IMG/VR virus record: IMGVR_UViG_3300021255_002539
Coordinates: 288,001 to 352,000 of that record
Origin: a virus
Taxonomy: Duplodnaviria; Caudoviricetes
Direction: 5' to 3' (one strand)
Length of the DNA: 64,000 nucleotides
In this document: piece by piece, positions 1,479-14,683 of the stretch
How the letters are laid out: each line of letters begins with the position of its first letter
Position numbering within the stretch: position 1 is the stretch's first letter
Position numbers and translations under genes: made by a program
The notes under the pieces: model-generated
Told to the model about the DNA's origin: nothing
What the model saw: the letters and a program-made list of their open reading frames with translations, nothing else
The model's database searches: none

Positions 1479-2105
1479 CTATTTCTCCTTTGTTTCAATT
1501 ATACGCCTTTTCGTCTTGTTGTAGACTATTATCCAGCCAATGTCGTCGAATATGCATCCCACGCCCCAAAGCAATATGGCAGAATTGAGGCTGGGCATTG
1601 CCAGAATAGCAATGGCGAAACCAAGCACCGCAACGCCATTTCTGAATATGGAGCTGGTGTTGTCGTACATCTCCCTTTCCTTGCCATTCCAGAGCTTGGA
1701 TTGGAACATCATGATGCACTTGCCGATGAAGGTCGTTATTATGGAGGAATACAGCAAAGTGAGGATTGCGAACACCCAGACATTGTAGTTCACGAACACC
1801 AGATACAAGGACAGGGCGAACGACCCAAGGGATTCTGCCAACGCGAACCAGGTGAAGAACCTCATTGCGAATTCCCGGGTCTTGTTCTTCCATATCGCGC
1901 CTATTACTAGCGCCGACATGCAGCACCACGCACCCTCGAACGATATGTACTCTGCTGGGAGCTTGGATATGATTTCCTTGACTATTGGTGGGTTCGCGTA
2001 GGTGTAGATTAGCCCAGATATGGCAGACGAAAACAGGAGATACCCTTGGTTCTCCTGCACTTGGATGTTTAGAACCCGCTTGAAGAAATGCCAAAACCTG
2101 GACAT
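1479..2105 (-). CDS. Multi-pass membrane protein (half-MFS-like); ends in TAG
   Basis: About 6 hydrophobic segments. Confidence 0.6.
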   Translation of the reverse strand: MSRFWHFFKRVLNIQVQENQGYLLFSSAISGLIYTYANPPIVKEIISKLPAEYISFEGAWCCMSALVIGAIWKNKTREFAMRFFTWFALAESLGSFALSLYLVFVNYNVWVFAILTLLYSSIITTFIGKCIMMFQSKLWNGKEREMYDNTSSIFRNGVAVLGFAIAILAMPSLNSAILLWGVGCIFDDIGWIIVYNKTKRRIIETKEK

Positions 2106-2107
2106 CT

Positions 2108-2299
2108 TCAGTTTTTCATGGTCTGCTTGATGTTGCTCAGGGTCCCGACTGACTCCTCGTACCACTGGTCAATCGCAGGTTTCTCCACCCCAATGTTCTG
2201 AAGAATCTGATGGAACCGCCAATCAGGGCAAGCCTCCACGGTCGCCTTGATGTGTTCGACTATCAATCTGTTCGCTTCAAGTCTTGTCATCGTCAACAT
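2108..2299 (-). CDS. Hypothetical protein (PDWRFHQIL motif)
   Basis: Small conserved-looking phage protein. Confidence 0.6.
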   Translation of the reverse strand: MLTMTRLEANRLIVEHIKATVEACPDWRFHQILQNIGVEKPAIDQWYEESVGTLSNIKQTMKN

Positions 2300-6657: not shown

Positions 6658-7539
6658 CTACGGGTGGTTACCCTTCAAGGTTTCGTCCAGGGAGTTCCAC
6701 ACCTCTGTCTTTTCGTATTCGTGCTTGTCCCCATTCCAGGACTTGTGTACAATGGAGAGTACATCCTCAGCAGCGAACAGCCTGTTGATCCTATGGTACT
6801 CCCACTTGTCGTAATAGATGGACTTGAGGTAGGTATATGCGGTCTTCACCACTGGGATATTGATTGGTTCTCCTGTTTTGTCAAGCGAAATCAAGTCGGG
6901 GTTGTAGCGATATATGATATAATCCAGTCTTCTGCTGTCGATATCCACCCTTACAGCCCGCTTGGATGGCCCGTCCACCTTCATTGTCTGCCAACCACAA
7001 TATGGAGAATTGGCGAGGTCGATTATCTTCTTCCAATCCGCAATCGTGGCGTCGTAGGTCTCAACTGACTTGTCGTCGGCCAACACCTTGTCCCGAATCT
7101 TCTCGTTGTATCGTTCAAGCAGTCGGTTCATCCACATTGGCACCTGCATATCCTCAGACACCTTGGCATTCGTCAGATTGCCATTCTTGTCCAGTTTCCC
7201 ATCCATCATGTAGATTGAGCGCAGAACCTTGTTCTTTTCGTGGACAACCGTAGCCCTCCTCCACAACTTGAAGCCATATTCCCATGTGCCATCGAAATGG
7301 TGGAGCTTCACGAACATCGGAATCCTGTCGTCCGAAAACGAATCCTTGAGTTGCTGGTACGTGGCGCACACATCCTCTATTTGGAGTTCCTCCAGTTCAC
7401 CATCGTCCTTGGACAGAACCATCGCATAGTCGTTGCTGGAATACTTGCCAGAGTGAATCGCCTCTCGTATGCTCTGCCAGAGACCGCAATTGGCAAGTTC
7501 CTTTGGCGTAATCTCCTCAACCCACTTCACTGCCTTCAT
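6658..7539 (-). CDS. Hypothetical protein; ends in TAG
   Basis: 293-aa ORF with phage-typical codon usage. Confidence 0.7.
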   Translation of the reverse strand: MKAVKWVEEITPKELANCGLWQSIREAIHSGKYSSNDYAMVLSKDDGELEELQIEDVCATYQQLKDSFSDDRIPMFVKLHHFDGTWEYGFKLWRRATVVHEKNKVLRSIYMMDGKLDKNGNLTNAKVSEDMQVPMWMNRLLERYNEKIRDKVLADDKSVETYDATIADWKKIIDLANSPYCGWQTMKVDGPSKRAVRVDIDSRRLDYIIYRYNPDLISLDKTGEPINIPVVKTAYTYLKSIYYDKWEYHRINRLFAAEDVLSIVHKSWNGDKHEYEKTEVWNSLDETLKGNHP

Positions 7540-7919: not shown

Positions 7920-8294
7920 TCAGAGCTGAATTTCCTCAACCTCCACGCCAGTGTTCTTGGTAATCCAATCTGCCACGAGATGTCTATGGCAGAACTCACC
8001 TGGCTTTTCGTAGCAAAGCATCACTGCGCCATCCCCCAGATTCCTGACGACTTCGTTTGGATCAAGCTTGCTCAATACAGTGTTGTTGTATTGTTCCACA
8101 TAGAACATATTTGGCAAGTGGTTGTCGTGCCAATATTGCCACCACAACTTCTTGGGTGCGAGTTCTGGCATGAAATGGGCGTTCGGCATGTCGTGGAAGG
8201 ACTTTGGGGCATATCCAGCGATGCAGACCAAGTTGTCGAACCCCATTTCCTGCAGGTTCTTGACATTTGCGAAATAGGACGTGTATATGTTCAT
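7920..8294 (-). CDS. DUF488-like protein
   Basis: MNIYTSYFA, ELAP, LCYEKPGEFCHRHLVA. Confidence 0.8.
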   Translation of the reverse strand: MNIYTSYFANVKNLQEMGFDNLVCIAGYAPKSFHDMPNAHFMPELAPKKLWWQYWHDNHLPNMFYVEQYNNTVLSKLDPNEVVRNLGDGAVMLCYEKPGEFCHRHLVADWITKNTGVEVEEIQL

Positions 8295-8305: not shown

Positions 8306-8758
8306 TCACTTGAGCAAGCCTTGAAGAACCTTTGCGCAGAATTTCTTGTCGCAATTCGTGGGAAGCATCTTCATCAAGCTTCCAAAGTCCTTCTTCGTCA
8401 GACTTCTGCCAAGTTGCTCTTCGTTCTTTGCAACCAACTCCTTTATGATTGCCTCAATTTGGTCGTTGGGAATCATGGATGGAAGAAATTCAGAAACAAT
8501 GGCAAGTTCACCCCTTGCCTTCTCCTCCAAGTCTATTCTGGATGCCATCTTCGCTGATTCAATGGAGTCCTCCACCTGCTTTGCGAACTTCTTGAGGCAA
8601 GAGACCACGATTTCCTCTGTGATGTCCTTTCCCTCGTTCACGGTCTTGTTCTTGACGTCAGAAACCACCATTCTGAGGACATCACTCTTCGTGGAATTGC
8701 CCGCCTTCATGGATTGCTTGATTGCATCTTGTATTCTGTCATATGTCTCGCTTGCCAT
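8306..8758 (-). CDS. GatB/YqeY domain protein
   Basis: I..AIKQSMKA..VLR..K..DSI...E....SEFLP..K.DFG.LMK. Confidence 0.85.
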   Translation of the reverse strand: MASETYDRIQDAIKQSMKAGNSTKSDVLRMVVSDVKNKTVNEGKDITEEIVVSCLKKFAKQVEDSIESAKMASRIDLEEKARGELAIVSEFLPSMIPNDQIEAIIKELVAKNEEQLGRSLTKKDFGSLMKMLPTNCDKKFCAKVLQGLLK

Positions 8759-8776
8759 TGTTGAAGTCCTTTCTGT

Positions 8777-9073
8777 TCATCTGATTATTGGTGTGTCTGG
8801 TGTTGGCTCTTCGGAAGGTTCGCTTCCCTTTGGTGGATATTTCCTCGCAAGTTCCCTTGCTGTGAGCATGTCGTCCTCTTCGTGGTAGCCTTCAGATGCG
8901 TACATTATCTTGCAGAGTCTGGGCAACAAATTCTCAGGCTTGTACCCACCCGGGTAGTCCCCCTCGCATTGGGCAGCAAGCCGCAACTCCCGATCTATTT
9001 GACGCAGGGTATATGCCATCGAAAGTGCCTTGTCCCTCATGCTTTCGTACCGTAGTTTCTCTTCGTCTGTCAT
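8777..9073 (-). CDS. Hypothetical protein
   Basis: ORF behind a TGG-TATAAT element. Confidence 0.55.
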   Translation of the reverse strand: MTDEEKLRYESMRDKALSMAYTLRQIDRELRLAAQCEGDYPGGYKPENLLPRLCKIMYASEGYHEEDDMLTARELARKYPPKGSEPSEEPTPDTPIIR

Positions 9074-9257
9074 GTCTATATTATACCACATTTGACTTCG
9101 GGTGTTCAACCCTCACCCGGAATATCGTGGGTCTCGTGGCTTCGTCTGGGAATTCCAATCTGAATTGGGATACTGCGTCCTCGTATGTGTTGACCTCGTA
9201 CTTTCGGCTCTGCTCCTTGTCATCTTCTTGCTTGAAGTGGAACTCAACGATCTCCAT

Positions 9258-9848
9258 TCAATTTCCCCCTTGCTTGTCGAACGCCCCGTAAAGCTTGAAT
9301 TTCTTGCTTATCTTGTGCGCATCATCGTCCTTGAGGGGCTTGAACCACATACCAACTGTGCAGGTTCCATCTGGGTTCTCTGGCGTCAAGTCAGTCTTGC
9401 AGTGGTCGTTGATGTAGCCATAATCTACACCTTCTACCAGACCCAGTTCCTTGATGGGTTCCTCTGTCTTGGACTTCAGTTGCTCCAGGTTCTTGGCCTC
9501 GCAAATGGTCTTGGTGAAGATGTCGTTGATGTAGCCCTCCCAGATGTCCTTTTGGATTTCAACTGTGACGCTCACTGTATTCCTTGGAAACTGCGTCTTG
9601 ACCTTGAAGTACTTCTCCCCGGCCTTGAACGCCTCCTCTGCCTTCTTGCAGACATCTGGGTGCTTGTATGTGGCTGGCCGACCAGGACGCCACGGATCTT
9701 CTGACAACAGGGTGTCGAACTCGTTGTCCTGCACATTGCCCGACTTCAACATGTTGGTGAAGAATGCCTCTGCGCAATGTCCAACCATTGCAGCCAGTTT
9801 CCCTGGCCTCAGATGAAGGTCTTTTCGGATTATGAATATGCGTCTCAT
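9258..9848 (-). CDS. Peptidyl-tRNA hydrolase, Pth2 family
   Basis: IIRKDL...GKLAAMVGH, FTKTIC, INDxCKTDL, T.TVG..P motifs. Confidence 0.8.
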   Translation of the reverse strand: MRRIFIIRKDLHLRPGKLAAMVGHCAEAFFTNMLKSGNVQDNEFDTLLSEDPWRPGRPATYKHPDVCKKAEEAFKAGEKYFKVKTQFPRNTVSVTVEIQKDIWEGYINDIFTKTICEAKNLEQLKSKTEEPIKELGLVEGVDYGYINDHCKTDLTPENPDGTCTVGMWFKPLKDDDAHKISKKFKLYGAFDKQGGN

Positions 9849-9864
9849 AGTGGTTCAATTATAC

Positions 9865-9898
9865 AAAAATCTACACTAGGCGCGAACCTAGTGTAGAT
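9865..9898 (-). terminator. Intrinsic terminator after the tRNA
   Basis: 12-bp stem ATCTACACTAGG/CCTAGTGTAGAT, loop TTCGCG, then a T tract. Confidence 0.85.
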
Positions 9899-9901
9899 AA
9901 G

Positions 9902-9980
9902 TGGCTGATCCACCTCCTTTGCCACGGAGGACCCAGCGGGTTAGAGCCGCTTGTGCTATTAGGCATTACACTATGGATCA
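9902..9980 (-). tRNA. Amber suppressor tRNA, anticodon CUA (probably Gln), with non-canonical D and T loops
   Basis: TGATCCA-TA-GTGT-AATGCCTAATA-GCAC-A-AGCGG-CTCTAAC-CCGCT-GGGT-CCTCC-GTGGCAAA-GGAGG-TGGATCA-G-CCA: all four stems pair, encoded CCA, U1-A72, G73. Confidence 0.9.
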
Positions 9981-10030
9981 ATTGAAACTGTCTCGTTTCT
10001 CATTGCCTTCAATTATACGAAATCCCAACA

Positions 10031-13000
10031 TCAGAAATCGCCCAAATCGACAGCATCAGAATCTTGCATCTTCACCGTGTTGTCTGGGGCCATGGATGGC
10101 GCGTTCTGAATCACCATTGCGCTTCCTACTGGTATCTTGTTCACTTCCTCCACATACTCCTAGAGGTTTCCATGTAGTCCGACTGCCGTCTCCTTGACCT
10201 CGGTGAATGTCTTCTCTGAAATCTTGTCTCCACGTATCAAGGCCAGCTTCAACTCCCGTTCCTCCCTGGGCAGTTTTGCGATTCTGTTCTCTGCCTCTTG
10301 CTTGATGTTGTTCACATCGTCGCCCAGTGACTTCAAGTCCTCGTCAGTGACCTTCCCAGGATCCTCAATCAACTTGCCGAGTATAGTTTCGTAGTTCTGC
10401 TCCTGCTTTTTGATTGCCTCCGCCGCCTTGATCTTCGCTTCCGCTATTACCAATGCTTCCTTGCGCTTGGCTTCCTCCTTGAGTTTCCTCTCGCGTTCCT
10501 CCTTTGCCTTGCGCTCCTCCTCTGCTTTTCTTGCTGCCTCTTTTGCCTCCCTCTGGCGGCGTTCCTCCTCTAGCTCTGCCATCGTCTTTGGTGGTTCCAA
10601 TGGGGTGGCGTTGTCGGCAATCTGACCAGGTTTCTTGACAATCGACTGACCTTGCATCTGCGAGGATATTCGCTTCTTGCGCTCGTCTCCGAACGCCACC
10701 CACACCTTCTTGAGTTGGTCCAGGTATCTGATGTCGCCCGTGAACTTCGCCTCGTACTGTGCCTTTTGCATCAAGGGTTGCAGGAGGTCTATGTTCTTCT
10801 GCAGTTCGACATCTGTCATTTCAGACATCTTCCCCCACAGACCAAACCACGTCTTCAGTATGGTGTCCTTCTCCTTGTCGTTGGGAATTCCCAGGCTTTT
10901 TCTGTACTCATCGAGTTTCTTGCGTTGTTTAGAGTTCGCGTTCGAGTAGTCGATGAGCCTCAGTTCCATGTTCGGGAATCTGAGGTACTTCTTCATGAAT
11001 CCAAACAGAAGTGGGGGTCGGAACAGAATCAGGAGTTTGTTGATCGAATCGTCGAGTGCCTGTTTGGACTTCTTGTCCCTGTTCGTGATGAAGTTGCCCA
11101 GTGCGTCCTCCACCCTGTTCCACTGGGGGATTATCTTGAAGGAAATGTACTCCAGGAAGATTTGAGCGAAGGCCCTCTGGGATGGGAGGTCGTGGAACAT
11201 ATTCTTCCAATCGAACCCCCGTATGTTGACGAAGTTGAAGAAGTTCCATGCCAGGCTGGCCAGAGGGGTTGTCTGGATGTCGTCCCCAAAGTCCTTGTCG
11301 AATTTCTTGATTATCTTGTTCTTGACGAAGAACTCTATTATTGGGATGGCGACTTGGATGCTGTTGTGTATTTGGCCAGACGAGAACAGGTCCAGTACGC
11401 CTCCATCGAACATCAGGCTCCTGACATCGCCGTATCTTATCCCAAATGCGGTAATGTCCTTCACCTTCTGGAGGATCCGCATGGTCTCGTACATCCTCTT
11501 GGACTTCCTGGAGGCGGCCTTGGCCTTGTCCAGAATCCCATCCTCTGGCTTGGCGTCGTACTTGCTCAGGTTCTTGTCGTAGTTCAAGAACCGTTCGATG
11601 CCCGCCTGACCCTTCTGAACTGGCTTCTTGAATGCTGACGAGATTTTCGAGACGATGTTCTTGTTGATTTGAATGGAATCCTCGATGCCGAAGGCCAGTC
11701 CAAACTTGGTCTCAACCTGGGTGTTCGCGTTCTCAAGCGAGTTGTTTTCGTCGGTTATCTCGCCCTTTTGGAGTCTGGTGTAGAAGTCTGTGAACCTGTT
11801 CTTGAATATGACGTTCCGTTCAACATCGTACCCACCAACATCGTGGTCGGCCAGTGCAGAGTTCCATTGCTTCCATTGCACCGCATAGTCTGCTATGTCG
11901 AGTTCCTTGGACTTGGTTGGATCCCAGAAACTGGGCTTGCCCAGGTCCTTGCACACGTTTTCGTATATCTCCCTGATGGCCTTCGCCCTGGCCAGTTCGT
12001 ATAGAATTGGGTGCACAGATATCTTCGCCTTGTTCTGCATCCATGTGAATGGCAAGAACCCAGTTGATGTGGTCTCGGCCTCTGCTGGACTGCCGAAGTA
12101 TATGTCTGGGGTCTGGTGTATGGACTCGAATGGGTTCAGTGGTATTATCGTCCTCAAGTCGCTGGCCATCACCCGATATCCAGGGTTCCATCCACTCACT
12201 GGGTCGTACAACAGACCCTGGACATTCTTGAACCTCTGGGACTTGCTGAGTTCGGTTATGTAGATGTCGAGTGCTTGAATCTGTGGCTGGATCGTCTCGG
12301 CGATCTTCCTGGCCTTCAGTTCCTTCAACTTCCTGCCCCTCTCCCTGGCAGCCGCGAATGGGTTGTACAACAAGGGTTGGTTGGCCTTCCATTCGTCCAT
12401 GTGCTAGTCGAGTTCCTGGCTGATGGTTGTCATGTTGGCGTTCAACCTGGCCAGAAGGTCGTTTGTTCCCCTTTCCTTGAGCCTGTTCTCTGTCTCCTCC
12501 CTGGTCGTCTTCTCGTCTACGGCCTGCTCCTGAATCTCCTGCGCCTTGCTGAACGACTTGGAGTACCGCATGTCCACGCTTCGCATTATGGCTCCACGTG
12601 GGATTCCACCTTGGAGCGTGGACTTCGACTGACCCTTACCTGTCTATAGCCCTGGGATGTTCACCATCTGGTTCTTGAAGGTCTTCACGCCCCTGCCAGC
12701 CTTCTTCAGGGCAGCCATGTAGACATTTATCTGACCCTTGGAGTCAGCCATCATGTCCTGGACATTGTTCTGCATCGCCCTCTCTGCGTCTGCCTTCTTG
12801 TTGTTCCAGTGGAGCATCACTTGGGTCGAGATGAAGGTGATTATGGCTGGTATGAGCTTGACTATGAACGACAGTATTGGTCCGACCCCGGGGACAATGC
12901 TCAGAACCCAACCCAGAATCTTGGCCAGTACCCCACCAGCAGATTTCCTCACTACGCCAATCAACCATGCGCCAAACAGCTTCCTCATGGTGTTCCTGGT

Positions 13001-14683
13001 CTCTATTCCATCTCTGATGGCACCCTTCTTTCCGAACAACTTCTTCTTGATGCCCTTGAAGAACCCAGACAATCTGTCGATGAAGTTCCTCAGACCAACA
13101 GTGACGAAGTTGTATATCCCCAGACCAATTGACTTCAGTGTACTCCATCCAGGTATTGGAACCCCGAATATCGTCATCTATGAACCATCGTTCTTGGGCA
13201 TGTACGCCTATGACCACTTGTTCAGGGCGAATCTGGTCAGACCTATCAGAATCAACGCTCCCAGGGCGAACACCATGAACTTCCCAATGCCACCAAAGAA
13301 CATTCCAAGCAGGGCATTGGCCTTCGCCTTTGCCTTCAACATGAATATCTGCCTTTGGGTCTTCTTCAAGTTCTTGGCTATTTCAGACTCCCCCTTGTCG
13401 ATCTTCTTCATCTGCTGGCCCAACCCCTTTTGGATTGCGTTGTAGTTTGGGGAGAACGCATTCACGAACTTCTTGTTTTGCAGTGTCTTCTGGAGGTTGT
13501 TGTGTATCTTGCCCAATGTGGACACTACGCCAGCTCTGGTTATGGAACCACCTTCAGCCCCAGGTTCCCGAATCGCACTGGGCAATTGGGTGTCCTCTGT
13601 TGGGCCGTGTGGTTGACCCAATTGGTGTACATGTCCACATATTGGGCAAGTGCACAGACCATTTGACGCCTTTTTTGTTGGGGACACATCAATCTTCGAC
13701 TGCTTTTGATCCACCTCTGGAATCTTTGTCTTCTCCAGACCCTTGGATTCCTTCGCAAAGAGGGATATGTCGTTCTGGATTTCCTTCTCGTATTGCTTCT
13801 GTTCCTTCTCCAGTTCCCTCCATTGCTTCCCATCCTGTTCCACAACTTCTGGCTGTGTCTGATCAATTCCCCCAATTTGATTACTACCCTCGATTTCACT
13901 TACCAGTTTTCTGAGGTCAATCTGTTTTGGTGGCTTGTTGTCCTGTAACTTGACTTTCTGACCTTGTTGAATTGCCTTGTTCAACTGGTCTATGCTGGAC
14001 GAGATGCCCTGTTCAACGTCTCCAGACAAGTCCAGTGTCTTGAGCATGGACTCAATCTGGCTCAATCTCTCCAGTTTCCATTGCTCGTCCTCGTCAGCCA
14101 GATTCCCCAATGCGTCTACTGTGCCTTGACCCTGCTCGGTTAATGTCTTGTTGAGGTTGTCGATGTCCTGTTGCTGACCTTCCTTGGACTTCGCCCATTC
14201 CAGTTTCCTTCTCTCGTATTCCCTAGAGAGGTTCAGCCTAACCTGTAGAATGGCCGTCTGAAGTTCGTCCATGAAGTCCAGCACCACCTGCATTATGTCG
14301 CAGTTGTCTGGCGTGAGTGTCTTGAGGACGACTTGCTTTGTCGTCTGCGACACCATGGCGGAATCCACATTCTCTGGGGTGAGATTGGCTTGATTTGCCT
14401 TTATCACTTCTGAGATTTTGTCGACAGTCTTGGAGTCTTTGACTATGTTCAGAAACTTCTCGTCAAGCGACCGATAGATGGTCCTAGGCAAGTATTCAGA
14501 ATTTGCGCCCTATTGGGTCAATGCGCCCTGTGTAAAGTCGTCGAACAGCCTGCCGAGTCCATTGTAGATGTCCTGCATGTGCTTTGTGGAGGACACTGGC
14601 TCCACGCCACCAACAAACGAAGTGAAGTTCTTCGTTGCTGAATTGGCTACTGCCTACAGGTCTTGTGTTTTTGGCTAGGACAT
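10031..14683 (-). CDS. 1550-aa virion protein, tape-measure-like (TAG read-through, 8 internal TAG)
   Basis: Four code-11 ORFs (13208-14491, 12644-13177, 12404-12586, 10160-12400) share one frame and are separated only by TAG; helical, with central hydrophobic G-rich segments; GTAAATA upstream. Confidence 0.8.

Follow-up and report, generated by a model that had tools for sequence, protein, structure and literature searches.

Gut phages of genetic code 15, such as the Lak and crAss-like phages, encode CUA tRNAs and read TAG mostly as glutamine; they have no cognate synthetase, and hence charging by the host is assumed (bioRxiv 10.1101/2021.08.26.457843). Proteomics has demonstrated TAG as glutamine in other gut phages (PMC9523058). 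In the Jade phage ‘code change module’ a suppressor tRNA is combined with TrpRS and RF1 (bioRxiv 10.1101/2021.08.26.457843). About 40-60% of recoded phages are without a detected suppressor tRNA. The CUA tRNAs of the code-15 gut phages are found by standard scanners; in contrast, the family described here was missed by ARAGORN in 5/5 copies. This hidden tRNA with an odd elbow, together with the cassette slot that it occupies, is our main result, rather than the helper module of suppressor tRNA, Pth2 and YqeY which an earlier note on this DNA had proposed.

The recoded genome and the layout of the locus

The window analysed is a stretch of 64,000 nucleotides, positions 288001-352000 of the phage genome G000. 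This genome is complete (414,060 bp with terminal repeats, 48% GC) and carries the Gp23 capsid gene of a T4-like phage; a search for a close cultured relative found none, the best capsid match being 31%. Both the sample source and the best-matching sequencing runs are animal gut, and we refer to a ruminant-gut phage; runs of small share were left out of the evidence. TAG read-through is confirmed in G000, where ORFs ended by TAG run on for a median of 279 codons, compared with 24-28 in two standard-code phages. Around 35 tRNA genes and a tmRNA gene are clustered, with the CUA tRNA lying 65 kb away from the cluster. No GlnRS or GluRS, GatB, release factor or Pth1 was found in G000, and no GatB_N in seven phages searched. 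The tmRNA (G000:368037-368369) encodes the tag GNDYRMAA, which is identical in the standard-code phage G002 and so hints at a common host group; the tag had no match among those of the Fibrobacter, Treponema, Lachnospiraceae and Bacilli genomes checked.

The earlier note placed the CUA tRNA, Pth2, two small ORFs and a stand-alone YqeY in this order on one strand; the sequence and the matches to PF01981 and PF09424 agree with it, and the strand is the minus strand. Upstream, a 1550-aa gene (10031..14683, minus strand like all features that follow) contains eight in-frame TAGs, at codons 3, 10, 58, 492, 502, 680, 760 and 1508; it bounds the tRNA slot upstream and is probably a late gene. Just behind its stop and ahead of the tRNA lies a promoter-like GTATAAT motif (10012..10018), which is kept before the slot in relatives and occurs 124 times in G000 with a strand bias. 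A short leader hairpin, GAAAC...GTTTC (9984..9999), is conserved ahead of the tRNA while the tRNA bodies change. The tRNA (9902..9980) is followed by a terminator-like 13-bp hairpin with a T run (9869..9898) and a second GTATAAT motif (9858..9864), 10 nt ahead of the Pth2 start, which would give a near-leaderless message. The Pth2 gene itself (9258..9848, 196 aa, assigned by PF01981 and fold) starts 54 bp behind the tRNA. Next come a 58-aa ORF of no family that is conserved in relatives (9081..9257), a sigma-70-like promoter match (9080..9109), a 98-aa ORF of no family that immediately precedes yqeY in all, or almost all, of 8 clade loci (8777..9073), and the stand-alone YqeY gene (8306..8758, 150 aa, PF09424). 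RNA run X10 of the same sample has two short contigs, 8513-8643 and 9053-9246, and none on the tRNA, a result that neither shows nor excludes its expression. Further along, a TAG at 6658-6660 of the window ends a 293-aa early-block gene and has a promoter match behind it; it may be a true stop, or may give an in-frame extension into a 73-aa gene once the suppressor is made.

The G000 locus resembles the Jade module in having a suppressor beside genes of translation at the margin of the recoded genes. It has, however, no synthetase or release factor, its tRNA, Pth2 and YqeY genes are separated by the terminator and the further promoter motifs, and YqeY appears dispensable. It is not a Jade-type code-change module.

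A CUA tRNA without the canonical elbow

The candidate amber suppressor is 79 nt long and is identified by sequence, fold and covariation. Its anticodon, CUA (9942..9944), reads UAG and is invariant in 13 slot tRNAs. Neither ARAGORN in bacterial mode, with thresholds down to 50%, nor Rfam calls the tRNA; ARAGORN does so in mitochondrial mode alone. The acceptor has U1:A72, G2:C71, G73 and an encoded CCA, the D-arm a 3-bp stem and a 13-nt loop with CC instead of GG, and the anticodon loop reads CU-CUA-AC. The variable loop is 4 nt, and a T-stem closed by C53:G61 carries an 8-nt T-loop (GUGGCAAA; GUGGYRAA over the family). The 7-bp acceptor, the 5-bp anticodon and T stems and the 3' CCA of the RF00005 cloverleaf are present, and G18-G19, G53:C61 and T54-Psi55-C56 in a 7-nt T-loop are absent; most other tRNAs of G000 keep GG and C56. 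To our knowledge, the D-loop GG/TPsiC elbow is nearly universal in non-mitochondrial tRNAs. We place the odd tRNA with the code-15 phage suppressors by anticodon and context, though canonical elbow features fail.

Homologues were found in the slot of G007 and L129 and elsewhere in L264 and L286, giving five sequences with G000. Across these, 99% of the cells are paired, and two-sided changes occur at 9 of the 24 pairs and in all four arms. One pair appears as A:U, G:C, C:G and U:A, which is hard to obtain otherwise. This level of covariation was reached by 0/500 shuffles and no slid register came close, controls that lean in favour of the structure since it was derived from the same five sequences. 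Also invariant in the five are U8, A14, A15 and, just ahead of the T-stem, the Levitt U, which suggests U8-A14 and purine15-pyrimidine48 pairing. The folding z-score (-1.5) is weak by itself; within the 414 kb, however, there is no second perfect 5-bp CUA arm and no other CUA cloverleaf. The comparison thus shows the tRNA to be real, its structure being kept by compensatory changes, and the earlier note’s reading of a suppressor tRNA in a recoded phage is supported by the anticodon, the in-frame TAGs of the genome and the covariation.

A covariance model built from the five copies recovers them at >100 bits and found no further copy in the other genomes examined. A complete recoded genome can therefore look free of suppressors to ARAGORN and Rfam and yet hold a conserved non-canonical one, and the recovery of the family by a small covariance model makes the question of the ‘missing suppressors’ directly testable. 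Cruder searches for homologues were discarded: a 15-mer anticodon-arm scan returned chance matches along with canonical CUA tRNAs that are unrelated, the matches to a loose CUA...CCA pattern were overwhelmingly due to chance, and L189 and L190 were false matches. Separately, C33 replaces the near-universal U33 in two different bodies, the G007 slot tRNA (L181:14646-14724) and L126:9558-9636.

What holds the molecule together in place of the elbow may be a helix between its loops. UGCC in the D-loop (positions 16-19; 9962..9965) is predicted to pair with its complement GGCA in the T-loop (9920..9923), and the two strands are complementary in 19/20 cells of the five sequences. One of the pairs changes on both sides in G007, from G:C to A:U, two never vary, and one varies among U:A, U:G and a C-A mismatch. 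These patterns are consistent with a 3-4-bp D/T-loop helix that replaces the GG/TPsiC elbow. Suppressors in which a double helix joins the D- and T-loops were reportedly selected in the laboratory by Kotlova et al. 2007. These, too, were reportedly amber suppressors in which complementary D- and T-loop strands replace the elbow, the difference being that they came from E. coli libraries whereas the odd tRNAs are a natural family. A natural, apparently essential tRNA without the GG/TPsiC elbow would be of interest to tRNA biology and as a scaffold for amber suppression.

The cassette slot and its neighbour Pth2

In 13 related loci a CUA tRNA occupies the corresponding position, behind the large gene’s stop and the GTATAAT motif; for L128 the contig covers only the last 21 nt of this tRNA. 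Six tRNA builds occur in this slot: the odd one, a near-canonical one, one whose variable loop is short and three kinds whose variable arms are long, so that relatives hold at least five CUA bodies besides the odd tRNA. Common to all are A72, G2:C71, U1 or A1, and CUA; L126, L199 and G006 have an A1-A72 mismatch. In G005 and L194 the 5' remnant of another tRNA body lies ahead of the slot tRNA, and a sheep-gut contig matches both flanks of our locus but has different sequence from 9904 to 9979. Relatives thus use the slot as a cassette for unrelated CUA tRNA bodies. The six bodies keep only the marks of Gln identity, an indication of the features that matter and a hint of selection by host defences; as a guess, body turnover may be an escape from tRNA-directed host defences.

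The L194 body (2095-2240, minus strand) has a long variable arm and an odd D-arm and is missed by ARAGORN; behind it lies an orphan CUA anticodon hairpin, and the remnant ahead of it comes from a different tRNA. HNH/endonuclease genes, some with a TAG at codon 12, lie between slot tRNA and pth2 in L199, L236, L129, G006 and G007, and could drive body exchange by homing. Outside the slot, L264 and L286 carry the odd tRNA among recoded genes far from Pth2 or YqeY; both are fragments, and their phages may therefore hold Pth2 elsewhere. At L264:2271-2431 a canonical CUA tRNA and an odd-elbow CUA tRNA stand in tandem between HNH-like and structural genes.

We think it likely that the locus holds a stand-alone, loop-helix suppressor, charged with Gln by the host and sitting in a cassette slot, with Pth2 and YqeY as ordinary neighbours. 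Equipped with a promoter and a terminator of its own, the tRNA gene would sit where a TAG-containing gene meets a block of small genes free of TAG. The suppressor would be made early, so that late genes with in-frame TAG can be translated. Its L-shape would be held by the short Watson-Crick helix of D- and T-loop in place of the G18/G19-Psi55/C56 contacts, and host enzymes would charge it with Gln through U1:A72, G2:C71, G73 and U35. The slot would act as a cassette for unrelated CUA bodies, and Pth2 and YqeY would belong to the neighbouring mosaic block, Pth2 most likely as a general peptidyl-tRNA recycler and YqeY without part in charging.

The Pth2 protein matches PF01981 (E 5e-9, 36.8 bits against a cut-off of 23) and falls below the NCBIfam equivalog cut-offs. 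The top matches of its predicted fold are all Pth2 (target TM 0.70-0.76). K17, H24, D148 and T152 are invariant, K17, D148 and T152 in 17 sequences aligned to solved Pth2. These three correspond to the catalytic Lys, Asp and Thr of the archaeal enzymes. Fold and conserved residues are thus those of archaeal-type Pth2 (PF01981), the difference being some 50 inserted residues that characterise a subfamily of rumen phages; the insertion spans residues about 38-92, is modelled confidently, is also found in standard-code phages and is absent from Treponema copies.

Pth2 follows the slot at a distance of 54-2194 bp in 13/13 relatives. The 13 loci, however, represent one inherited gene order, in which the upstream gene and a DUF488 gene are about as fixed. 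The proposal in the earlier note that Pth2 may clear drop-off caused by early TAGs has in its favour that Pth2 stays within 2.2 kb of the slot in the clade; against it, Pth2 is also found where there is no CUA tRNA, and the enrichment of early TAGs is weak.

A rival reading makes tRNA and Pth2 a two-part unit, with Pth2 recycling peptidyl-suppressor tRNA after drop-off at TAG: bodies that evade surveillance lose features that host Pth1 reads, and the phage would therefore need Pth2. We regard this as possible, though doubtful. Pth2 is said to tolerate a 1:72 mismatch in a study of the Sulfolobus enzyme. For E. coli Pth1, G53 is the sole base-specific contact and an unpaired 1:72 blocks the enzyme (PMC3488237), and C53:G61 is present in 5/5 members of the odd family, as is the A1-A72 mismatch in the three bodies named above. 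The constant position of Pth2 and its invariant catalytic residues fit as well, as do the TAGs at codons 3 and 10 of the upstream gene and a 2-3x enrichment of early TAGs in G005 (p=0.005) and G006. That excess is, however, not significant in G000 (5 seen vs 2.6 expected, p=0.12) or G007, and Pth2 is also kept beside bodies with canonical U1:A72 and G53 (G005, L201, L235 and L236). Members of the subfamily are present in two phages of standard code, G001 and G002, as well as in genomes of Treponema and Fibrobacter, which carry Pth1 too. The Pth2 genes of L131 and L196 (75-76% identical) lie in an NAD-salvage cluster with no CUA tRNA within 8-10 kb. Furthermore, a terminator and a promoter motif stand between tRNA and Pth2, and the odd tRNA occurs away from Pth2. 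More speculative, and in our judgement improbable, is a wider scheme in which rebuilt-elbow suppressors cycle through the slot to evade host defences, Pth2 is their dedicated recycler as the bodies are poor Pth1 substrates, and such families explain part of the recoded phages without a found suppressor.

Two observations accompany these Pth2 loci. Directly before pth2 most relatives have an ORF of 91-95 aa and no family (L126:9721-9999; L129, L131, L196, L198, L201, L234, L235 and L236), present even in the NAD-salvage context and missing in the window; the real partner of Pth2 may be this ORF. In L196 a TnpB gene (994-2280) is interrupted by one in-frame TAG, and a second phage lineage (42% GC) is therefore probably recoded too.

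Decoding of TAG and the place of YqeY

The reading of the odd tRNA as the working suppressor has to be set against one in which it serves as a tRNA-like decoy, or is a weak copy in decay, TAG being read by a host suppressor or by near-cognate reading. The loss of the GG/TPsiC elbow, the C33 of G007 and the canonical CUA tRNA right beside the odd one in L264 would fit such a role. We nevertheless hold it unlikely, for the complete G000 genome has no other CUA tRNA, no release factor and no synthetase, and the odd tRNA takes the exact place of its relatives’ canonical suppressors with stems that covary in four arms.

As a suppressor the tRNA probably inserts Gln. In alignments with three relatives, Gln stands opposite TAG in 17/68, 19/86 and 11/67 columns, a share of only 16-25% that is nonetheless the commonest residue in two of the three comparisons. 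Glu (12/68, 9/86 and 11/67), Asp and Ser come next, and against G007 Asp and Glu tie with Gln, so that Gln has a plurality and no majority. Conversely, the TAGs of relatives align to Gln of G000 more than to any other amino acid. The bacterial Gln identity set matches the tRNA at U1:A72, G2:C71, G10, U35, A37 and G73 (PMC9976931). All of these are shared with bacterial tRNA-Gln; A3:U70, C38, the CUA anticodon, the absence of GG, the 8-nt T-loop and C53:G61 set the odd tRNA apart from bacterial and E. coli tRNA-Gln. The acceptor stems of the L264 and L286 copies resemble the phage’s own tRNA-Gln(UUG). That A72 and G2:C71 are kept in all slot bodies points to Gln charging by host enzymes, and we infer that these would charge whichever body is present, with no phage helper needed. 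An alternative assignment for the long-arm bodies, insertion of Ser, was rejected, as the TAGs of G005 align to Gln and none to Ser.

It is also conceivable that TAG is not Gln alone, the tRNA being charged with Glu or, if GatCAB cannot read the odd D-loop, left in part as Glu-tRNA to give mixed Gln and Glu. To this we attach little weight. Glu is second at the TAG columns and a long D-loop is an anti-determinant for GatCAB; however, Gln lies far above background, the proteomic assignment in other gut phages is Gln (PMC9523058), and Glu is expected at TAG columns anyway because GAG is one mutation from TAG.

YqeY (8306-8758) is a full-length match to PF09424 (E 1.6e-27; phrog_1460) and, unlike the tails of GatB and GlnRS, is unfused. 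GatB tails read the D-loop and contain a Lys-rich KxGKxK motif (PMC2811023), which is absent from the YqeY sequence; in Deinococcus, the YqeY domain on its own does not bind tRNA and is inactive in trans (PMC1865053). The gene is present in 8 slot loci but missing from G005 and G006, two complete recoded genomes with a slot suppressor, and from the slots of L128 and L201. It stands equally beside canonical bodies (L126, L199, L234, L235 and L236) and occurs in phages of standard code (XacN1, Xoo-sp13, Sundance, G002 and L239); the earlier note had remarked that both genes are found in other large phages. The nearest YqeY (95%) accompanies a canonical tRNA body and a 59% Pth2, and the locus with the nearest Pth2 (95%) has a different tRNA body and no yqeY in its slot. 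The YqeYs of the three odd-tRNA phages are only 62-70% alike and do not group, and the YqeY tree disagrees with both the Pth2 tree and the tRNA type. A scan of viral contigs for YqeY found nothing. An apparent rule that YqeY goes with CUCUAAC and not with CUCUAAA loops was broken by L235 and L236.

In the comparison of co-occurrence and synteny called for earlier, pth2 was near the slot in 13/13, yqeY was lost in recoded relatives, and both genes were found in standard-code phages. A three-part module in which YqeY would attach to the odd elbow and assist a host synthetase or GatCAB in charging the tRNA is very unlikely: the D-loop reading by GatB tails, the long D-loop without GG and the presence of yqeY within 5.2 kb of all three slot odd tRNAs (G000, G007 and L129) are outweighed by its loss in G005 and G006, the disagreement of the trees, its equal presence beside canonical bodies and in standard-code phages, and the inactivity of the free domain (PMC1865053). 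On this comparative evidence YqeY seems clearly dispensable, and the charging role given to it in the earlier note can be dropped. After yqeY comes a DUF488-N3a gene (window 7920-8294), which is kept in the block more consistently than yqeY.
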